From contig CAXTKV010000041.1 in the NCBI GenBank assembly GCA_964244895.1, positions 1 through 15,076 on the forward strand: 15,076 nucleotides of DNA, read 5' to 3'. The stretch comes from an uncultured Deinococcales bacterium. GTDB taxonomy: Bacteria; Deinococcota; Deinococci; Deinococcales; JAAFIG01. This document shows positions 396-9,930 of this stretch, piece by piece; within the stretch, counting starts at the first letter, position 1, and the number at the start of each line of letters is the position of its first letter. The translations under genes were made by a program, and so were the position numbers. The notes beneath the pieces are model-generated. The model was not told the DNA's origin. It saw only the letters and a program-made list of their open reading frames with translations, and made no database searches.

Positions 396-470
396 TTTCC
401 GGGGAAGACCGTCCAGCACGCAAATCCGGAAAAGTCAAAAAACACCGTCCCAGACGGTCTTCCCTGGAAA
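396..470. repeat. Inverted repeat containing a REP-like ACCGTCCAGCACG element; possible terminator of the TPR gene
   Basis: TTTCCGGGGAAGACCGTC (396-413) pairs with GACGGTCTTCCCTGGAAA (453-470) at 17/18 positions. It lies 10 nt downstream of the stop at 481-483. Confidence 0.7.
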
Positions 471-480
471 CCCAGTCGGG

Positions 481-2160
481 TCAGTTCAGTTCAAGGTTGC
501 GCGTTCGTTTGCCCGACATCATCTCCAAGGATCGCGCCACCTCGAGCGCCCAATCCGAGTACACGCCCTCCAGGAACGAACCCTCGAAGAACCCGTCCGC
601 TCTGGCCCGCGCGATGTCGTACTCCCAGGTCGCGTCCGCATCCAGACGGTACGCGCCGCGCAGGGCTCGCACGCTGCCCTCCCAGCCCAGGGCATCGCGC
701 AACTTGTTGACCAGCTTCCAGACGGCCTGGCGCACCCGCACGGGTTCCGGTGGCCCGAACGAACCCGCGTACATGGCATCCCCGATCACCTCGAGCGAGG
801 CCACACCCCCAGCTTCCAGCAGGAACACCAGCAGTTCCCCGGCGCGCCCGGTCGGCGCGATCGGTACGGCGCGGTCGTTGACGCAGACCTCCAGCACGCC
901 GGAAGCCTTGACGCTCACGACCGTGCGCGTCGCGTATTCCAACCGTGCGGGCACGGGCTGACCCGCGTTCTCGAGCAAGCCAAACAGCGCCCCGAAGGCT
1001 CCGGTTTCCTCTCGGGCGTGCAAAGACGCGACCGCGAGACCCTCCAGCAAGCCTACGGCCTCGTCCAGTCGCCCGTCCTGCCGCGCCAGTTCCGCCCGAG
1101 CGATGCGTTCCAGCCACTTGTCCGATTCGCTGACCAGCGCGCCCACGCGCCCCAGCGAATCCCGCGCCCGTTCGGGTTGGCCCAGCGCCAAAAAGACCAT
1201 CGCGTGCGAGACGCGCAGCGCCCCCTTCTCGAGCGTATCGTCCTGGAGGGCGAACTCGAGGGTTTCCAGCGCTTCGATGTGCCGCCCCGCCAGCCGCAGC
1301 GTGCGCGCCAGACCGAGATACGATTGCTTGCGGTCGTGCGCGTCGCGTGCAACCTCGAGACCTGCGCGATACGTATGTTCGGCGCGTGCCCATTCACCAA
1401 TCGCACGGCGTGACCCACCCAAACCGTTCAACGTCGCCGCACGCAACACCGCCGCCTGCGGTTTGCGCGTCAACCGATCGGCCTCGAGAAAATGCCGTTC
1501 CGCCTCCGGGTCAAGATCGCGTAAAGCGCTGATTCCGAGGTTGTAGCGCAGCCAAGCGAGCATTCTGGGATCGGATCGATACAGCGGCAATGCCTCGAGC
1601 CAGACGTTGCGGGCCTCAATGCTCTTTCGGCTCTCTGAAAGGCAATAGCCCTCGTTGAGCAAGGCTCGCCCGAGTTCCTCGCCGGAAAGCAGCGCCCGCG
1701 CATGGGCAAAAGCTTCGTGCCAAGGCTCTCTGAGGTTGAAGAGAACAAATCCAAGCAACCGAAACGCGATCCCTAATTTTTCACCGTGGAGATGCAAAAT
1801 CACGCCATCAATGGCGCGTCGAGCCTCAGGATAACGACGCATTTCGGATAGCGCTCCGCCGCACTCAAGTTGTACTGAAGCGGCTCGAGTCACATTGTGT
1901 CGCGTCGCGACTCGAGAACTAAATTCAATCACGTCAGCAAATCGACGATTCTTGTTTAGCACTCGCGCACATACAAATGCCGCCTCAACCGATTCAATGC
2001 GTTGCGCTTCAGGAATTCGTTCAACAAGCTCAAGTGCCTGCCTCCACTCGTCCTCAGTGCGAATCGTCGGCAACGCCCGCTCGAGCACCATGACCGCACG
2101 ATCAACGTCGCCCTGCTCGAGCAGCAGTTCACACGACACGCGAGCTTCAGCGAACTTCAC
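481..2160 (-). CDS. TPR-repeat transcriptional regulator with a C-terminal OmpR/SARP-like winged-helix domain (putative peptide receptor)
   Basis: 559 aa, GTG start. Several TPR-like helical pairs (RALLNEGYCLSE, WLRYNLGISALR, TLNGLGGSRRAIGEWARAEHTYRAGL, SYLGLARTLRLAGRHIEALETLEFAL). The C-terminus 'GVLEVCVNDRAV...LLVFLLEAGGVASLEVIGDAMY...VWKLVNKLRDALG...RGAYRLD...FLEGVYSDW' fits a Trans_reg_C-type wHTH followed by a short BTAD-like start. Confidence 0.85.
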   Translation of the reverse strand: MKFAEARVSCELLLEQGDVDRAVMVLERALPTIRTEDEWRQALELVERIPEAQRIESVEAAFVCARVLNKNRRFADVIEFSSRVATRHNVTRAASVQLECGGALSEMRRYPEARRAIDGVILHLHGEKLGIAFRLLGFVLFNLREPWHEAFAHARALLSGEELGRALLNEGYCLSESRKSIEARNVWLEALPLYRSDPRMLAWLRYNLGISALRDLDPEAERHFLEADRLTRKPQAAVLRAATLNGLGGSRRAIGEWARAEHTYRAGLEVARDAHDRKQSYLGLARTLRLAGRHIEALETLEFALQDDTLEKGALRVSHAMVFLALGQPERARDSLGRVGALVSESDKWLERIARAELARQDGRLDEAVGLLEGLAVASLHAREETGAFGALFGLLENAGQPVPARLEYATRTVVSVKASGVLEVCVNDRAVPIAPTGRAGELLVFLLEAGGVASLEVIGDAMYAGSFGPPEPVRVRQAVWKLVNKLRDALGWEGSVRALRGAYRLDADATWEYDIARARADGFFEGSFLEGVYSDWALEVARSLEMMSGKRTRNLELN

Positions 2161-2194
2161 CGATCATCCCCCCACCCCGGTCACATGATGGCAC

Positions 2195-2234
2195 ATCAAA
2201 GGAAGACGGCGAGGACGGTGCATCCTCGCCGTCT
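2195..2234 (-). terminator. Probable intrinsic terminator after the peptide genes
   Basis: Perfect 12-bp stem AGACGGCGAGGA (2204-2215) / TCCTCGCCGTCT (2223-2234) with a 7-nt loop. On the minus strand it is followed by TCCTTTGAT, a weak U tail. Confidence 0.65.
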
Positions 2235-2272
2235 GTGTTGCGTGGATTCAATACGTGGCAAACCAGTGTGGA

Positions 2273-2410
2273 TTATCGGCGGCAGGCGGGGCAGGGCTTC
2301 GGGTCATCCGCAAAAGCAATCGAGGTGTCACTCGGAAGGATAGACGACACGAAGGGAACCGCGACGGCGATCAAAGCACCCACGAGAATCGTGCGAACAG
2401 CGAGTTTCAA
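2273..2410 (-). CDS. Small secreted peptide precursor (45 aa) ending in DDPKPCPACRR; not in the ORF track
   Basis: Manual translation: MKLAVRTILVGALIAVAVPFVSSILPSDTSIAFADDPKPCPACRR*. TTG start with SD GAGGTG at 2421-2426. It has a basic N-region, a hydrophobic core and an A-F-A motif just before DD. The C-terminus is paralogous to that of 2488-2658. Confidence 0.8.
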   Translation of the reverse strand: MKLAVRTILVGALIAVAVPFVSSILPSDTSIAFADDPKPCPACRR

Positions 2411-2487
2411 CGTGAACGTTCACCTCGTTTGCGTGTGCCACACTCTCCTCGATGCCGCGACACCGCGACCGATGATGCCTCGAGCGA

Positions 2488-2658
2488 TCAGCAGACGCTG
2501 CAAGGCTTCGGGTTATCGTCCACCTGCATGAAGACACCCGGCCTCGAGAGCTGATGCTGAGCGTGTTGCACGGCCAGTTGCGCACCGAAGAACGCGCTCA
2601 GGGTGGCGATCAAAGCGATGGCGATGAACTGCTTGGGGTTGTATGCGCTACGATTCAT
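2488..2658 (-). CDS. Small secreted peptide precursor (56 aa) ending in DDNPKPCSVC
   Basis: MNRSAYNPKQFIAIALIATLSAFFGAQLAVQHAQHQLSRPGVFMQVDDNPKPCSVC*. ATG at 2658 has SD AGGAGG at 2665-2670, so the track's start at 2757 is probably too far upstream. It has a signal-peptide-like hydrophobic stretch. Confidence 0.8.
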   Translation of the reverse strand: MNRSAYNPKQFIAIALIATLSAFFGAQLAVQHAQHQLSRPGVFMQVDDNPKPCSVC

Positions 2659-2740
2659 GGTGTTCCTCCTGGTGGGGAATCCTGGATGCGGGGGTTCCGA
2701 GGCCCGAACCGCATCCCATTTCTTTGGTTGAAAAGATCGA

Positions 2741-2941
2741 TCAATCCTGGCGAGCATTTACACGGGGATCACCTCCTCCTGCGGTGAACGGGCGGAATGC
2801 TGGTGTGAACTGCTCGGGCCAGCTCTTCGCCTCGTTCAATTGGGTGCGCGCAGCTCGCCGTTCTCGAGAGACCTCTCGGCGCAGCGCTGAGAGATCGCCC
2901 AACGCGAGCAGCTCGAGCGTCAAGGAGTCGGTGAGCCTCAA
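2741..2941 (-). CDS. Small hypothetical protein (66 aa)
   Basis: The TTG start overlaps the TGA stop of the upstream 53-aa ORF (TTGA at 2938-2941), suggesting translational coupling. It contains a charged helical segment, LELLALGDLSALRREVSRERRAARTQL. Confidence 0.5.
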   Translation of the reverse strand: MRLTDSLTLELLALGDLSALRREVSRERRAARTQLNEAKSWPEQFTPAFRPFTAGGGDPRVNARQD

Positions 2942-3099
2942 TGAAGGGCTGCTTTCGGGTGGAACTCTCGATCGATCAGGTGGTTGAGCCGGATGGCGGC
3001 CTCTCGATCGGTCACGAACTGACGATCAGGCGTGAATGCCAGGACGTTGGGGTTCTGGATTGGCGGAATGGGTGTGAATACGCGGTACGTTGGTTTCAT
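2938..3099 (-). CDS. Small hypothetical protein (53 aa); not in the ORF track
   Basis: Manual translation: MKPTYRVFTPIPPIQNPNVLAFTPDRQFVTDREAAIRLNHLIDREFHPKAALH*. The ATG is preceded by an AAGGAG SD, and the stop overlaps the next start. Confidence 0.55.
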   Translation of the reverse strand: MKPTYRVFTPIPPIQNPNVLAFTPDRQFVTDREAAIRLNHLIDREFHPKAALH

Positions 3100-3348: not shown

Positions 3349-3543
3349 TCAGTGCAATCTCGGGCGGCCTAACGACACCCACTCGAGATACCGCACCAGA
3401 TCCAGCACGCTCACGAACTCCAGGCTCTTGCCGGGCGATTGACCCGTCAAGGTGAAGCGTCCCGGCTGGTTAGGGGTCGCAGGCTGCACGTGCAGCACGA
3501 ACTCGAGCGAGGGCAGCTTGGGGTCTCGGGTCACAACGATCAC
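3349..3543 (-). CDS. Small hypothetical protein (about 61-64 aa)
   Basis: Plausible beta/alpha mini-domain (LEFVLHVQP...FTLTG...LEFVSVLDLVRYLEW). GGAGG sits 8 nt before the GTG at 3534, which may be the true start. A -10-like TATCTT lies at 3554-3559. Confidence 0.65.
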   Translation of the reverse strand: MIVVTRDPKLPSLEFVLHVQPATPNQPGRFTLTGQSPGKSLEFVSVLDLVRYLEWVSLGRPRLH

Positions 3544-3586: not shown

Positions 3587-3802
3587 TCGGGTTTCGTTCA
3601 AGCGTCAGCGTTTGCGAGGGCCTGCCATGATGACGATTCCAGATTGAAGGATGTTCTTCCATTGATCGGTATGGCGCTTTTACGATTCAATGCCTGGACG
3701 TCAATCAAGTTGGGCGATGCGTTGTCCGTGAAGTCGCATCGGGTTCCTGTCGCGAGATCGCGAATCTTGCGTCCGGGACGACTTCAAAACGCTTTTAGGG
3801 TA

Positions 3803-4234
3803 TCAATCAATTTTAGCGAGAAAAAATTGAGGGCGATTTGTACCCGAACCACCGTCGAACAGCATGAAAACCCTGGCTTCTTTTAAAAGAATATCGAGAC
3901 TGCTAATCTCAGATGGGACAAAAACGGTCGAAGTTCCGCCCGTACTCACGATGCTTAGCTTGTTGCTTTCCATGGAAATTCGTATCTCATCACCAAAATA
4001 ATCGGCATGGAATGTGTCTGGCACTACCAGGATTCCCCAACCCCCGCCACATTTTGAAAAAACATTTACAATATCTAAAATCTGCGATCTGTTTTCGACA
4101 CTAAATTTGATATCCATCGAATATTCACCAGAAGAAAACGTAAGCTCATTTTCTTTACGGCTTTCCTCTATGTTCATATACTGAAATACTTTAAATCCCT
4201 TTTTTTGCGGCTGAATCTCTCGAATCTTTCTCAC
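3803..4234 (-). CDS. AT-rich hypothetical protein (start uncertain: 4309, 4234 or 4177)
   Basis: An open frame of more than 120 codons in AT-rich DNA, where chance ORFs are short. It directly follows the STAND gene. TAAGGAG lies just before the GTG at 4234. No motif recognised. Confidence 0.6.
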   Translation of the reverse strand: MRKIREIQPQKKGFKVFQYMNIEESRKENELTFSSGEYSMDIKFSVENRSQILDIVNVFSKCGGGWGILVVPDTFHADYFGDEIRISMESNKLSIVSTGGTSTVFVPSEISSLDILLKEARVFMLFDGGSGTNRPQFFLAKID

Positions 4235-4262
4235 TTTACTCCTTAATTTGTTTAATTCTGCT

Positions 4263-7070
4263 CTAAATTGCACGATTTTTAATAAAAGAGACAATTTTGC
4301 TATATTCATTTATCATCTCTGTATATATTACCCCTTTCTCTGCGGATAAACCCATTTCCGCATAATTCAGCGCTTTTTCATAATTTCTATTTAACAGTTG
4401 TATTTTAGACAAGTTTATCAAAGATATGTGCTTAAATCGAGCAAAATTATATTTTTCTGAGAGATTAAGAACTTTCTCAAAGCATTCTAAAGCAAGAATT
4501 AAGTTGTTTCTCGATTTAGCGATACTACCTTTAACAACGATTGTACCCAAAAAGTTTTTGTCTATACCAAAAGTAAAATCACTTTCAACTTTTTGATTGT
4601 AAATTTCCGCTTTGTCTAAATTGCCCAGGAAGATTTCTAATTCAGCTAAATAAATATAAAGCTTCCCTAAAATGTCATCATGAAGCTCGTTTTCAGATTT
4701 TTTGAGTTTGTAAAGTAAAATTTTTGCTTTCAAAAATTCGTTTAAATTGAAAAGAGCCTGGGATGCTACTAAAATGGCGTTTGCTTTTGTATTCCAACTT
4801 GCTTTTGATTGATTTATTGCTTTCAATATATGAAAATAGGCGGATTCGGAAGAACCTGTAGATATTTCAATTTCTGCAAGGTTTGTTTCTGATTCGAGCA
4901 GAAAATCTTCATTTCTGTTATGTTTAGAAACTTCGAGCAGGATCTGACTCTCTTTTAACCAAAGATCTTTTTTATCTAAATTTCGGAAAATCCTCACCCT
5001 CTTTGAATGAACGTTCAAGCGATCTGCAACATCCAGACCGTTTTTAAGCGCTTTTGAATAATGCGTCAATGCGATTTCGTGTGCGTAGATTCTGATCGCA
5101 TCGTCGCCAGCTTTGATGCTCCACAACGCGGCTCGTTTTGCCAGTCCACCTCGTTCGTAATGCTCTGCAATCCGAACTGATGTACCGCCTGAATTCTCGA
5201 GGCTTACCGCCAACTTCCTGTGTATCAACCTCTTCCGATCGGGGTTCAACCCGTCCTCTAGCGCTCGCCGGATCAAATCGTGGTTGAACCGATACCCGTC
5301 GTTGCCTTCCTCGAGCAATTCCGCTTTGACGGCGCGTTCAATCGCGTCCACGCCTTCCCATTCGGTTAACGCCGTGGCGCTGGAAATGAGGGACAGATCG
5401 AACCCGTCCCCGGCCAGGCTCGCAGCCTCGAGCAATCGGCGCGCGTCGGCTCCAGTGCGATCCACGCGGGCGATCACGGTTTCGCGCACGGTGGCGGGTA
5501 TGGGCAATTCCGCGTAGCTTTCAGTGTCGTCGTGCGGTGTCGTCCAGGTTCCGTCGGCTGTGACCTGCAATTGTCCCGATCCGAACAGGTCGCGCAGGGT
5601 CTCGAGCAAAAAAAATGGGTTGCCGACGGTCGCGGCGTGTAGGCGCTTGGCGAAGGCGGGTGCGTCCGCACCGCCGGAGAGGGATTGAATCAGGACGCGC
5701 ACATCGCGTTCTTGCAATGGTTCCAGGTCGAGGCGCGTCAGCAACCCGTCGCGTTTCAGGTCGACGAGGATCGGGGCGGCGGCTGCGTTGCCCTCAAGTT
5801 CGACGGTGCGGGCGGTGGATATCAATCGCACGTTCGCGTCTTTGGCGCGTCGGGCGAGGTGCGCGACGAGCTCTAAGGTCGCCGCATCGAACCAGTGCAG
5901 GTCGTCCAGCACGATCGCGCCGCCATTCCCGACGCTGGCGATGATGGCGCGTGCGAGTCCTTCGATAAATCGCACGCGGCCTTCCAGGGACGGCATGGGT
6001 TGCGGTGTAACGCTCGGGTCAATTTCTGGCACGAGCCGGGCGCATTCGGTGCGCCAGACGGGTTCCAGGGTGTTTGCCCAGGCGGGTTCGCGCAGCGCTT
6101 CGCGCAGGCTTTCCGCGACGGGATACAGCGGTGATCCGCTCGAGCCTTCGCGCCCTTGCAGGCGATGGACTGCGCCTTTTCGGGCGGTGTAGTACGACAT
6201 TTCGTCCGCCAGCCGGGACTTGCCGATGCCGGGTTCGCCGGTGATCAGCGTCAGGCCGGGTTTTGCGCGCTCCAGTTGCGCCCATTCCGTCTCGCGCCCG
6301 ACGAGCGGTGAGCGCAAGTCGAGTTGCGCGGCGTCTGGGATCTCGAGGACGGTCAGGTCGCTGGCTTTGCGTTGGATGGCGTTCTGAACGCGTTCGGCGA
6401 TCTGTTGGGTTTGCGGCAGGGGCACGTCGCCCAGTTCTTGTTCTAGGGTCTGGCGGTAGCGTTCGTAATGGCGGATGGCGTTTTCGCGTTCGCCGAGGGC
6501 TTCGAGCAGGCGGATGACTTGGCGCTGGTGGAATTCCTGAAGTTCGTCGTCGTTCAATAGGCGTTGGTGCGTTTCGAGCGCGCCGCGCAGGTCGCCGCGT
6601 TCTTCGTGTTTGCTGGCGAGCCGCCTCAGTGTTTCGTGGTAGGCACCCGTCAGTGTTTCGCGGGTGGCCTCGAGCCATTCTTTGAATCCGGGGGCGTCGG
6701 GAACGTCCAGATCCTCGAGGAACCTGCCGCGCCATAAACGCATGGCGGCTTCGTCCTCTTGGGCACTGATGTGGGCTCGAAAGTGCGTCAGGTCGATTTC
6801 GGCGCATATGCCCAGCCGGATTTCGTCTCCGTCGCTGGCAAAGAAACCTTCTGGCAGGCGCTCTTTGAGTTCGTAGATGCGCTGCCGGAGGTTGCGCCGG
6901 GCGTCGGCTTGGTTCATCTCGGGCCACAGCAAATCCGCGAGCTTGTCGCGGCTGGTGGTTCCGTTGGCGCTCAGGTACGCGATCAACCCGATGCCCTTGC
7001 GGTCTCGCAGGGCGATGGGGCGTCCGTCGACGCGGAATGTGGGGCGACCGAGCAGCAGGATTTCGAGCAC
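4263..7070 (-). CDS. SARP/AfsR-like transcriptional regulator: wHTH + BTAD + AAA (STAND) ATPase + C-terminal TPR
   Basis: Likely start GTG at 7070 (VLEILLLGRP), with GGGAGG upstream and a TAGCAT -10; about 935 aa. wHTH 'LIAYLS...SRDKLADLLWPE...ARRNLRQRIYELK'. BTAD 'LWRGRFLEDL...FKEWLEATRE...QEFHQRQVIRLLEALGERENAIRHYERY'. Also 'LVGRETE', Walker A GEPGIGKS, Walker B IVLDDLHWFD, 'GNPFFLLE' and 'YRFNHDLIR', followed by a TPR-like tail. Confidence 0.92.
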   Translation of the reverse strand: MLEILLLGRPTFRVDGRPIALRDRKGIGLIAYLSANGTTSRDKLADLLWPEMNQADARRNLRQRIYELKERLPEGFFASDGDEIRLGICAEIDLTHFRAHISAQEDEAAMRLWRGRFLEDLDVPDAPGFKEWLEATRETLTGAYHETLRRLASKHEERGDLRGALETHQRLLNDDELQEFHQRQVIRLLEALGERENAIRHYERYRQTLEQELGDVPLPQTQQIAERVQNAIQRKASDLTVLEIPDAAQLDLRSPLVGRETEWAQLERAKPGLTLITGEPGIGKSRLADEMSYYTARKGAVHRLQGREGSSGSPLYPVAESLREALREPAWANTLEPVWRTECARLVPEIDPSVTPQPMPSLEGRVRFIEGLARAIIASVGNGGAIVLDDLHWFDAATLELVAHLARRAKDANVRLISTARTVELEGNAAAAPILVDLKRDGLLTRLDLEPLQERDVRVLIQSLSGGADAPAFAKRLHAATVGNPFFLLETLRDLFGSGQLQVTADGTWTTPHDDTESYAELPIPATVRETVIARVDRTGADARRLLEAASLAGDGFDLSLISSATALTEWEGVDAIERAVKAELLEEGNDGYRFNHDLIRRALEDGLNPDRKRLIHRKLAVSLENSGGTSVRIAEHYERGGLAKRAALWSIKAGDDAIRIYAHEIALTHYSKALKNGLDVADRLNVHSKRVRIFRNLDKKDLWLKESQILLEVSKHNRNEDFLLESETNLAEIEISTGSSESAYFHILKAINQSKASWNTKANAILVASQALFNLNEFLKAKILLYKLKKSENELHDDILGKLYIYLAELEIFLGNLDKAEIYNQKVESDFTFGIDKNFLGTIVVKGSIAKSRNNLILALECFEKVLNLSEKYNFARFKHISLINLSKIQLLNRNYEKALNYAEMGLSAEKGVIYTEMINEYSKIVSFIKNRAI

Positions 7071-7233: not shown

Positions 7234-8841
7234 TTACTCGCCGGATCTGGCCACGGCGGCTCCGATGGCCATGCCCAGGAAGGCGTCGATGACTTTCGGG
7301 TCGAACTGCTTGCCGCTCTGCGTGCGAATCTCTTCCAGGGCCGCGTGGACGCTCCAGGGTTTGCTATAGGCGCGTTTTGACAGGAGCGTGTCGTACACGT
7401 CGCAGACGGCGAAGATCCGGGCGACCAGGGGGATCGTTTCGCCCGCCAGGTGATCCGGGTAGCCCATGCCGTCCCAGCGTTCGTGGTGGTGACGGATGAC
7501 GTTGAGCGCACCCTGGGACAGGTTCGGGATGCGCGAGGCCATCTGCGAGCCGACCGATGCGTGCGATTGCATCAATCCCCATTCGTCCGGGTCGAGCGCA
7601 GAGGGTTTTTGCAGCACGGCGTCCGGGATGGCGAGCTTGCCGATGTCGTGCAGGTACGCACCCTGGCGCAATTCATCCAGCGAGCGCCCGCGCAGCCCGA
7701 GGACGTTCCCGAGCGATTCGGCCAGGCGAACCACGCGTTCGGTGTGACCTTTGGGTTCGAGTTCTCGCGTCTCGAGCGCCAGCCCGAGGGCGGACAACCC
7801 GTTTTCCAGGGTGCGCCGGACTTCGGCGTCCACCCGGACGCGCTCTAAGGTGTGGCCGACGCGCAGCGCGACCGATTCGAGGGTCAGGCGCATTTTGGAG
7901 GTGACGGCCTGCCAGCTCTCGAAGCTCAGCACGCCGAGCATGCCGACCAGGCGTCCGCCGTCGCGGACGGGCACGAGCAGATAGGTCTTGAGTCCCAGCG
8001 CGCACCACCCTGTGAGCGCGCCTTTTTCGTCGCTGTAATCGGCGCCCCAGATGGTGCGACCTTCGCTCATGGCGTTCTCGAAAGCGTTCTGGCCGGGTTG
8101 AAAGAACGGCAGTCCGATCATCCCGATGGCGTTCACGGACGACCTGGTGTTGATCCTGGAAACCGTGAACAAGCCCTGGTGCGGGCCGTGAGCGTCGGGA
8201 GTCAGGTAGATGGCGGCGTCGTAGCCGAGCCGGTCGCGCACCATCGTCAGGCCGACCGCCACGATTTCTGTCGGGTTCTCGAGCCATTCGAGCTGGGCCG
8301 TAAATTCGGCCAGCGTGCCCGTGCTGGCGGGATTGGTGAACGAAAAGCTGACATCGCGCTGCCTCTCTTTGTCCTCGTACATGCGGCTGTCCGCCAGCGC
8401 GAGCGCTCGCTCGAACGGTTCCCGGCTGGTGATCGGGGCGACCCCGACGGAGAAGGCAGGCGTGCCGGGTCGGGATTCTTCGAGGTCTTGAAGGGCGATG
8501 GCAGCGATCTCGAGCGCTTCGGTTTCGTCGTGATGAGGCAACAACACCACGAATTCGTCGCCGCCCCAGCGCGCCAGAACGCCCTCTGGAGGCAGAGCCT
8601 TTTCGAGCGTCTGAGCGACCGCCACGAGTTGTTGATCGCCAGCGCCGTGGCCGTTGAAGTCGTTCAGTCGTTTGAGGCCGTTCAGGTCAATCATCAAGAG
8701 CGCGGCGGTCGTACCTTCGGGCAATTGCTCGTAGCAGTGCAGCAAACCCTGACGGGTGAACACGCCGGTCAGAGGGTCGAGGGCCATGGGCTGTGGTTGC
8801 ACGATCTGTCGCAGTTGGTCGAGCAATTTTGCGTATCTCAC
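7234..8841 (-). CDS. GGDEF-GAF-HD-GYP hybrid diguanylate cyclase / c-di-GMP phosphodiesterase
   Basis: Likely start GTG at 8841 with SD AAGGAG at 8848-8853 (the track starts at 8904). GGDEF motifs DPLTGVF, MIDLNGLKRLNDFNGHGAGD, RWGGDEF and ADSRMY. A central GAF domain (LLVPVRDGGRLVGMLGV). HD-GYP motifs GHTERV, LHDIGK, HHERWDGMGYP and RIFAVCDVYD. Confidence 0.95.
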   Translation of the reverse strand: MRYAKLLDQLRQIVQPQPMALDPLTGVFTRQGLLHCYEQLPEGTTAALLMIDLNGLKRLNDFNGHGAGDQQLVAVAQTLEKALPPEGVLARWGGDEFVVLLPHHDETEALEIAAIALQDLEESRPGTPAFSVGVAPITSREPFERALALADSRMYEDKERQRDVSFSFTNPASTGTLAEFTAQLEWLENPTEIVAVGLTMVRDRLGYDAAIYLTPDAHGPHQGLFTVSRINTRSSVNAIGMIGLPFFQPGQNAFENAMSEGRTIWGADYSDEKGALTGWCALGLKTYLLVPVRDGGRLVGMLGVLSFESWQAVTSKMRLTLESVALRVGHTLERVRVDAEVRRTLENGLSALGLALETRELEPKGHTERVVRLAESLGNVLGLRGRSLDELRQGAYLHDIGKLAIPDAVLQKPSALDPDEWGLMQSHASVGSQMASRIPNLSQGALNVIRHHHERWDGMGYPDHLAGETIPLVARIFAVCDVYDTLLSKRAYSKPWSVHAALEEIRTQSGKQFDPKVIDAFLGMAIGAAVARSGE

Positions 8842-8900
8842 GTGTTTCTCCTTGTTGGCGTTGGGCTGCGGTAAAAAATCTGGGAGTCGACAAAGATGCA

Positions 8901-9752
8901 TCACAGGTTGCTCACGTCCTCGATGGTGGCGTTCAGGTCGAACGAGAACGCGCCGGTCGCGAGGTTTCCGCTGAAACCGTTGGCGGGTGTCATGGTCGCG
9001 CTGGCCGAATGAAACTCGAGCCTCTGAGCCGTAATTGCATCTACCGTGAGCGTGCCATCGGTCGAATCCCAGGCGCGCAGTTCGCGCTGGTTTGAGCCCG
9101 CCGAGGTCTGGAAGTAAGTGATCGAAGCCGTGCCCGCCGCGCCGACGCGGTCGGTACTGACCAGGCGGTAGGTTTTACCCGGCGTGAACGGCGCCGTCAG
9201 GCAGACGTAAACGCCCCGTCCAGCGGCGCTGGCCGTGACCTGGCACAGGCTGCCCTTGAAATTCGCGTAGGCGGAGCTCATCTTGAGCCCGCTCGGGTCA
9301 ACGTTGCTGTCGCGGTTGGTGAAGCGTCCGCTGACTTGCCCACCCGCTTCGACCTGCTTGACGGCGATGTACAAGGGCGTGCTGCTCGAGGCGGCCTCGG
9401 TGCGGGCGGTGACGGTCGCGGCGATGGCCTGCTCGGTGTGAGCCCGATCGCTGGCTTCCAAGGTGACGGTCACGCGATCCGCGTCCGCAGGAACGATCAC
9501 CGTAGACGCGCTGACGCCTTCGGGCAGGTCGAGGAAATGCAGTTTGACCTCGCGGTGATCGCCCGAGGGTCGCTGAATCGAAACGTTGACCGTGGCGCTC
9601 TTGCCCGCTTCGAGCTTCAGGCTCGAAGGGGAGAGGCGAAGCTGAACGCTGGCGGATTCGTTCGCGGTCGGAACGACATCGACGCCGGGGCAGGCAGTCA
9701 AGGCAATAGCGAGAAACGGCAGCCCAAGAGCCAAGAAGATACGACTGGACAT
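8901..9752 (-). CDS. Lipoprotein with an Ig-like beta-sandwich domain
   Basis: Start ATG at 9752 (MSSRIFLALGLPFLAIALTA-C) gives a lipobox LTAC, with SD GAGGGTG upstream. 'LSPSSLKLEAGKSATVNVSIQR...LPEGVSASTVIVPADADRVTVTLEAS' is typical of Ig-like surface domains. The C-terminal domain is beta-rich with two Cys. Confidence 0.85.
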   Translation of the reverse strand: MSSRIFLALGLPFLAIALTACPGVDVVPTANESASVQLRLSPSSLKLEAGKSATVNVSIQRPSGDHREVKLHFLDLPEGVSASTVIVPADADRVTVTLEASDRAHTEQAIAATVTARTEAASSSTPLYIAVKQVEAGGQVSGRFTNRDSNVDPSGLKMSSAYANFKGSLCQVTASAAGRGVYVCLTAPFTPGKTYRLVSTDRVGAAGTASITYFQTSAGSNQRELRAWDSTDGTLTVDAITAQRLEFHSASATMTPANGFSGNLATGAFSFDLNATIEDVSNL

Positions 9753-9756
9753 GTTT

Positions 9757-9779
9757 TTCACCCTCACGCGGAGGGTGAA
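9757..9779 (-). promoter_or_regulatory. SD-sequestering hairpin (putative riboswitch expression platform)
   Basis: Minus strand TTCACCCTC-cgcgt-GAGGGTGAA is a perfect 9-bp stem. Its 3' arm is the SD of the lipoprotein gene. Confidence 0.6.
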
Positions 9780-9847
9780 CGGGTTCTCGAAATCGGACGC
9801 TTCCGGTCTGGAGGCGTCGGAGTTCGAGGAGGCTCGATGGTTGTCCA

Positions 9848-9930
9848 TCGAACAGGGCCGGTCGCACCACTAGCTCCATCCACCCGAGGTGCCCGGATTA
9901 CAGGGTGAACTTCATCGCTTCCCGTGCCGC
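9848..9930 (-). promoter_or_regulatory. c-di-GMP-II riboswitch
   Basis: The minus strand reads CACGGGAAGCGAUGAAGUUCACCCUGUAAUCCGGGCACCUCGGGUGGAUGGAGCUAGUGGUGCGACCGGCCCUG. This fits the class II pattern GAA-RC-N-RUGAA...YGGGCAC...GGAGYUAGURGUGCRACC, with a kink-turn (AUGAA/GGA), P3 GUUCACCC/GGGUGGAU and a pseudoknot GCACC/GGUGC plus CCGG/CCGG. A TAAGAT -10 lies at 9945-9950, and the element is upstream of a c-di-GMP enzyme. Confidence 0.88.

Follow-up and report, generated by a model that had tools for sequence, protein, structure and literature searches.

Do the two small genes near the start of this contig encode signals for the TPR protein beside them, and is such an arrangement found beyond one genome? 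The window, by which we mean the whole 15,076-nt stretch of DNA analysed, is the 5' start of contig C41 from an uncultured Deinococcales bacterium (genome 5.1 Mb, 91% complete). All three minus-strand ORFs from which the first-pass annotation built a candidate peptide-signalling system are present where it placed them (Table 1). We read the two window peptides and the adjacent TPR-SARP protein as a one-component peptide signalling switch, at a probability of about 0.6. The gene arrangement is real and conserved.

Table 1. Features of the peptide-receptor locus and of its neighbours in the window
Feature	Position	Strand	Remarks
Propeptide 1	2488..2658	-	56 aa, ATG, strong AGGAGG site
Propeptide 2	2273..2410	-	45 aa, TTG start, GAGGTG 10 nt upstream
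Receptor/regulator gene	481..2160	-	559 aa
TPR superhelix, residues 1-398	967..2160	-	predicted peptide sensor
SARP-type winged helix and first helices of BTAD-like part, residues 414-548	517..921	-	
Hairpin in spacer of peptide and receptor genes	2204..2234	-	likely terminator or mRNA end
Hairpin directly before ribosome site of peptide 1	2684..2716	-	
Inverted repeat past receptor gene	396..470	.	likely terminator, not system-specific
64-aa ORF	3349..3543	-	also upstream of cassette in branch relatives L112 and L008
SARP-STAND regulator	4263..7070	-	winged helix, BTAD, AAA ATPase, TPR; recurring branch neighbour
GGDEF-GAF-HD-GYP protein	7234-8904	-	upstream of STAND gene
Ig-like lipoprotein	8901-9848	-	upstream of STAND gene

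Putative peptide precursors and the predicted TPR-SARP receptor

On the basis of hydropathy, both window peptides have a basic start followed by a hydrophobic stretch, with best 11-residue Kyte-Doolittle means of 2.5 and 3.1. Peptide 1 ends in VDDNPKPCSVC and peptide 2 in FADDPKPCPACRR. The DD(N)PKPCxxC ending that had been noticed in both mini-genes is present. The two have a common 27-nt core that is 81% identical, and similarity between the two peptides is limited to this core. Peptide 1 is orthologous to the one peptide that the closest relatives have (47% identity to the peptide of locus L004, with DNA that aligns from the ribosome site onward), and peptide 2 is an additional copy that was not seen in those relatives. 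The precursors of relatives are 38-85 aa long. No NCBIfam family scored above cut-off for the receptor or the peptides.

The hairpin separating peptide 2 from the receptor gene, also claimed earlier, is real: its arms pair at 2204-2215 and 2223-2234, it folds at a z of -4.0, and none of 200 shuffles was equally stable. Among homologous peptide-receptor spacers, 54 of 86 fold at z <= -2. The hairpin ahead of peptide 1 is common to seven cysteine-branch relatives; alone it is weak (z -1.3), with a compensatory change in 1 of 10 pairs. The inverted repeat past the receptor gene is built from a genome-wide palindrome, one copy of which lies at 444-458. This palindrome, ACCGTC-N3-GACGGT, has 251 exact copies in the genome against 0-6 for six control patterns, usually with A- and T-runs at its flanks, and we interpret it as a REP-like or uptake-sequence-like element within terminator-like hairpins.

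TPR repeats are the sole Pfam matches of the receptor protein (TPR_12, E 5.6e-13), and its structure model (pLDDT 94) has helical repeats to residue 398 followed by an alpha/beta domain, consistent with the original description of a TPR protein with a C-terminal winged helix. Folded alone, this domain finds its best matches in AfsR/EmbR (Foldseek E 3.4e-5; Z 13-14, rmsd 2.7-3.1 over 139-142 residues), and OmpR-type domains rank below these (Z <= 10). The profile of the C-terminal domain also aligns with the SARP N-termini of neighbouring STAND proteins (HHalign 93.9%), in support of the OmpR/SARP type proposed for it. A complete BTAD is absent, with the Pfam BTAD found in 0 of 44 C-terminal domains, and the receptor chain ends ~45 residues past the winged helix. 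Full-length homologous receptors are ~530-600 aa long, and the recognition helix of the window receptor keeps the family pattern. Residues R251, R252, R259, T287, R289, D197, and D276 are conserved and are candidate contacts for the D-x-x-K core of the peptides. The TPR fold matches LGN (Z 21.5) better than RapI (18.6), NprR (17.5), and MalT (16.7), and by profile comparison RapJ reaches only E 2.7e-4. Judged from the model, the TPR fold thus appears generic, with no specific structural kinship to Rap/NprR over other TPR proteins.

Pairing and co-divergence of receptors and peptides

A profile of 80 homologues was searched against 364 genomes of the phylum. Full-length, strong receptor matches occur in families f1, f2, and f4, and the matches of f3 and f5 are weak and at the level of TPR repeats. 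The 113 examined loci comprise the 110 best-scoring among the matches listed, the named locus L001 (whose protein is the same as that of L004), and two paralogues from the window's own genome; about 40 listed and about 390 unlisted weaker matches fall outside the 110. The named relatives belong to Deinococcota, the phylum that had been proposed for the host and in which they would place it.

The first-pass annotation had named as its check whether homologous regulators keep an adjacent secretion-type small ORF and co-vary with it, and both outcomes were observed. An adjacent small ORF on the same strand, with a hydrophobic stretch and a terminal core, is present in 96 of the 113 examined loci, L028 and L074 having been added to this count by hand. 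Two of the remaining 17 loci are without upstream DNA, and eight have an intact, cut, read-through, or frameshifted peptide when inspected by eye; in seven of the 111 examinable loci no peptide is visible (L024, L031, L036, L087, L100, L102, and L104). Three distant receptors likewise have a peptide gene. The loci are related, so these counts are not independent. At L047, which is included among the 96, the peptide gene is kept but has moved behind the receptor gene. In L023, L044, and L096 it is displaced by 350-850 nt yet kept, in L044 by an insertion. Tandem receptor genes occur at L114:7508-12839, each with its own cysteine peptide, the second of which ends in GDCEKPSGC.

The peptide rule matches 86 of 599 stop-ended segments in the 400 nt that precede the receptor gene, compared with 11 of 11,442 segments in the rest of these loci, three of these 11 being displaced peptides; the rule was formulated with the candidates already seen and is not blind. 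When the four peptides of the window's own genome were part of the training set, the model put them in the top four places among 99,223 segments, a result that is circular, and a cysteine-free peptide model ranks the window peptides sixth and twelfth of the same 99,223 (E 0.82 and 2.1).

Peptide cores follow the receptor tree. In a FastTree phylogeny of 112 rows, from which the fragment L025 was dropped, peptide types map onto receptor branches, and the window receptor falls within a 13-row branch (SH 96). Deep nodes were not used because of several long-branch joins. Across the family the core consensus is hydrophobic-A-G-D-D-P-K-x-G-x-G-G-stop, and most endings read D-x-x-K-x-G-x-G-G. Among 84 paired rows, D is found in 78 and K in 69, and conservation of the core exceeds that of the hydrophobic part in each of the six receptor-identity bins, from 0.39 versus 0.25 up to 0.90 versus 0.84. 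This co-divergence reflects joint inheritance and selection on the core and is not a sign of binding, since kin carry the same labels.

Searching with a DNA pattern for one of the peptide cores returned 83 matches. Five of the 80 that were fetched have the receptor and a WYL regulator gene alongside, all of them Deinococcaceae records; the other 75 do not and were judged to be chance. The phage search returned no match for the system, and the metagenome search found no locus. Alignment-based searches of the locus turned up no conserved stretch that could serve as a query.

Predicted operator and CRISPR-Cas context

The gene next after the receptor encodes a WYL regulator in 78 of the 113 examined loci, and 27 of 113 have a CRISPR array in their 1.5-2 kb flanks (with Pfam run on a subset); certain loci run straight into Cmr2 or Cas6. 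Of 20 larger loci chosen by hand, 14 are outside the window's branch and its sister. Cas genes were identified by Pfam in 10 of these and by likeness in two more, and the remaining two have WYL without cas genes. Annotated plasmids carry the arrangements TPR-cas3-I-C-III-B (Allomeiothermus silvanus), TPR-WYL-I-E (Deinococcus sp. NW-56), and TPR-WYL without cas (Deinococcus sp. KNUC1210). The window's own genome contains a type I-C cassette on contig C36, peptide-receptor-WYL-cas3-5-8c-7-4-1-2-array, with 19 repeats in the array and gene names assigned by likeness to Pfam-scanned relatives, and a peptide-receptor-WYL arrangement at the contig end of C310. In family f4, in-frame fusions join the WYL regulator with Cas3 (HD and helicase) at L039, L041, L051, L052, L067, L117, L118, and L124. 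Directly upstream of the C36 cassette and next to lipoprotein genes, C36:17493-18827 encodes a protein of 445 aa whose start looks SARP-like by eye.

Past the receptor stop codon, 6-mer direct repeats peak at a spacing of 11, which occurs in 40 of 110 downstream regions, compared with 2-19 at other spacings and 9 of 111 in a coding-DNA control. The predicted operator motif is (G/T)CGAC(A/G) twice, 11 bp apart. According to the available text of PMC5930380, an 11-bp direct-repeat unit overlapping the -35 is the classical SARP site. The earlier interpretation, which is partly supported, had missed this SARP-type promoter repeat and the usual place of the system at the head of WYL/cas operons. 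In cross-validation the operator was recovered in 51 of 72 WYL-linked loci, versus 1-6% in shuffles and 2 of 72 on the reverse strand; it is found in 4 of 32 loci without WYL and in 0 of 6 with a convergent WYL. A -10-like box, (T/C)AnnnT, which is outside the model, begins 8 nt past the operator at 57 of 70 sites, often with a start codon ~7 nt after the box.

Ownership of the operator was assessed in the best 30 of 40 WYL matches from 80 genomes picked for a weak or absent receptor match, with L244 dropped for want of upstream DNA. The operator precedes WYL in 4 of 4 cases with a receptor gene upstream (three distant WYLs included) versus 2 of 25 without, and so tracks the receptor and not the WYL gene. 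When the whole genome was scanned for targets, only the two paralogue sites stood out clearly, as the two top-ranked matches, but the seven matches at a score of at least 16 equal the seven in the reversed control. No common motif upstream of the peptide genes was found (3 of 94 and 4 of 94).

Near the window receptor no operator was found (best downstream score 3.4). The contig ends 480 nt past the receptor, so the target is perhaps missing from the assembly. A repeat-like site at window position 3755 (score 10.6) was rejected, as it is at background level and has no -10 box at offset 7-8. The receptor copy in the window is without cas neighbours, and WYL is present in 0 of 13 loci of its branch. 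Operators occur in 2 of 10 loci of this cysteine branch, where the SARP domain of the neighbouring STAND protein could be the binder instead. The cassette has a SARP-STAND gene nearby not only in the window but also in 3 of 5 large branch loci, at L005 and L036, and at L130, a sister locus; lipoprotein or subtilase genes often accompany it. The window's branch is of a derived cysteine type, is no longer tied to CRISPR, and probably controls genes for secreted proteins or lipoproteins. The genome encodes about a dozen paralogous SARP-STAND proteins (C52, C206, C30, C111, C134, C116, C269, and others). At C52, an 11-bp GCGAC repeat lies behind the STAND gene, before a small ORF and a lipoprotein gene, suggesting that SARP-STANDs may read sites similar to the 11-bp repeat.

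Proposed mechanism, alternatives, and known relatives

The best reading of these sequences is an RRNPP-like, peptide-controlled activator outside Bacillota that is not itself a member of RRNPP. The precursors would be exported by Sec and then trimmed to an acidic C-terminal peptide of ~8-13 residues, which in the window may be closed by a disulfide (DDPKPCxxC). The mature peptide would re-enter by way of an oligopeptide ABC transporter. The genome encodes 22 binding proteins of the family-5 peptide type, and such proteins are present in 11 of 14 control genomes. Once imported, the peptide would sit in the TPR groove near the conserved arginines 251, 252, 259, and 289, and its binding would switch the C-terminal winged helix on or off. 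The winged helix would bind the two (G/T)CGAC(A/G) boxes, which are spaced 11 bp apart within the -35 region, and would thereby activate the promoter; for most family members the predicted target is the WYL gene at the head of a CRISPR-Cas operon. The broader proposal, that Deinococcota evolved peptide quorum sensing without descent from the Bacillota systems, that an imported peptide makes the TPR-SARP protein activate CRISPR-Cas, and that the window is a redeployed disulfide branch, is more tentative, and we place it somewhat short of an even chance.

The main rival is a private same-cell circuit, in which the receptor still activates the repeat promoter and a periplasmic or membrane-anchored peptide reports envelope damage, secretion stress, or time, and not density. 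The two-membrane envelope of Deinococcota could hold a peptide in the periplasm, and a single hydrophobic stretch suits a membrane anchor and a signal peptide equally. Identical cores across species, for example DGDDPKIGTGG, leave little privacy between populations, and defence genes plausibly respond to damage. However, the basic-hydrophobic-spacer-terminal core layout is that of RRNPP precursors as described in the available text of PMC9765709, and separate channels fit the distinct peptide types that accompany each receptor paralogue in one genome. We consider the same-cell circuit unlikely.

Much less probable is that the small proteins are CxxC redox or metal-binding micro-proteins through which the regulator senses redox state or metal. 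All 10 visible loci of the window's 13-row branch have two cysteines 2-4 residues apart, and CC pairs arose separately in family f4, as would suit such a role. However, most peptides of the family are cysteine-free, including both paralogous peptides elsewhere in the genome, which have glycine endings, and the spacing of the cysteines varies, so that redox or metal sensing would at most be a branch-specific gate on the signal. At the two cysteine positions, C is found in 13 and 6 of 84 rows. Given its occurrence in the window's branch, its separate appearance in f4, and its absence from most of the rest, cysteine is a trait of single branches and not of the family, and it no longer serves as the defining trait for which the first-pass annotation took it.

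Two ligands were likewise thought to define the system, possibly as an agonist/antagonist pair such as is known from PrgX systems, a reading whose probability we rate as very low. Peptide 2 has two extra arginines and is unlike peptide 1 outside the core, and a two-peptide precedent is known (PMC9765709, available text). Against this, two peptide genes occur in 2 of the 113 examined loci (the window and L062), one suffices in the closest relatives, and the DDPKPC core of peptide 2 is that of the single peptide of L004. Opposite action of the two peptides is unlikely because their cores are nearly identical, and peptide 2 most likely acts as another signal of the peptide 1 type. Least probable of all is that the small ORF is an output of the regulator (a secreted effector or antimicrobial peptide) and not its ligand: the operator lies upstream of the peptide gene in L010 of the cysteine branch (score 17.7), but in WYL-linked loci it is downstream in 55 of 67 and upstream in 1 of 67, and the peptide core tracks the receptor tree.

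The peptide-controlled activator proposed here resembles the RRNPP/RRNPPA systems (Rap-Phr, NprR-NprX, PlcR-PapR, and AimR-AimP) in its hydrophobic-leader precursor with a C-terminal core, its adjacent TPR protein, its peptide types per receptor branch, and the extra peptide genes that appear now and then. Among the RRNPP features given in the available text of PMC10075063, it has the 10-100 aa propeptide, the TPR repeats, and the adjacent peptide and receptor genes; its receptor of 559 aa, however, is longer than the 250-500 aa of that signature. The signature also includes a Sec signal peptide, for which hydropathy gives a basic start and a hydrophobic stretch in both window peptides. Unlike the N-terminal HTH or three-helix bundle of RRNPP receptors (PMC9765709, available text), its effector domain is C-terminal and SARP-type, and it differs further in its phylum and in its usual target, WYL/CRISPR-Cas. 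The available text of PMC10075063 places intracellular peptide-receptor signalling in Bacillota and in mobile elements of these bacteria, and the string 'Deinococc' is absent from the main texts of PMC10075063 and PMC9765709. A literature search that lay largely outside subscription papers found no paper on the peptide or on a signalling reading.

The receptor alone is already in print. In the available text of Shah et al. (PMC6546367), C3a198 is a 'TPR protein' family of CRISPR type III-B accessory proteins of ~532 aa, with three members in its rows (Mrub_1490/K649_15110/Mesil_3386). Counting genes from the Csx1/Csx2 gene, Mesil_3386 (NC_014213) falls on MESIL_RS17030. No other plasmid protein matched the window protein better (37% identity), and a peptide ORF lies upstream of MESIL_RS17030. 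The receptor family therefore appears to correspond to C3a198, by gene count rather than direct sequence comparison. Unlike the present description, the entry in that text names a TPR protein only and gives no peptide, DNA-binding domain, or mechanism, and the window copy, unlike C3a198, is not beside cas genes. The term C3a198 was found in the searched literature in PMC6546367 only. As a signalling system, the arrangement is apparently undescribed.

Likeness to SARP activators (AfsR, EmbR, and PimR) extends to the winged-helix fold and the start of the BTAD at the Z scores given above and, in relatives, to 11-bp direct repeats in the -35 region, none of which was found in the window. Unlike in those activators, the domain is C-terminal behind a TPR sensor and not N-terminal, and it comes with a truncated BTAD and a cognate peptide gene. 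Regulators that combine TPR and BTAD in Actinomycetota, Chloroflexota, and Deinococcota, grouped as ESM Atlas clusters, are similar in size and feature profile (score 0.93-0.95), but the Pfam BTAD is found in 29-99% of their members, unlike in the window receptor. If the signalling reading is true, the Deinococcota version with its other effector domain would be a second invention of intracellular peptide-signalling logic, and CRISPR-Cas loci would contain a dedicated peptide switch. Given the peptide sequences, the operator prediction, and the spacing of the promoter, the system is directly testable in culturable Deinococcus and Meiothermus-group strains.

For four further ORFs of the window (2938-3099, 2741-2941, 3803-4309, and 3-137), neither the genome nor the fetched loci yielded a credible homologue, and these ORFs were excluded as members of the system. 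Small ORFs 2938-3099, which has a ribosome site, and 2741-2941 are on the minus strand upstream of peptide 1. ORF 3-137, also on the minus strand, begins past the terminator, runs off the contig end, and has no Pfam match. GC content drops to 0.29-0.41 over window positions 3803-5000, where the STAND gene encodes its C-terminal TPR part and is followed by an orphan ORF of 168 aa, and this suggests an exchanged STAND sensor end with its attached gene.
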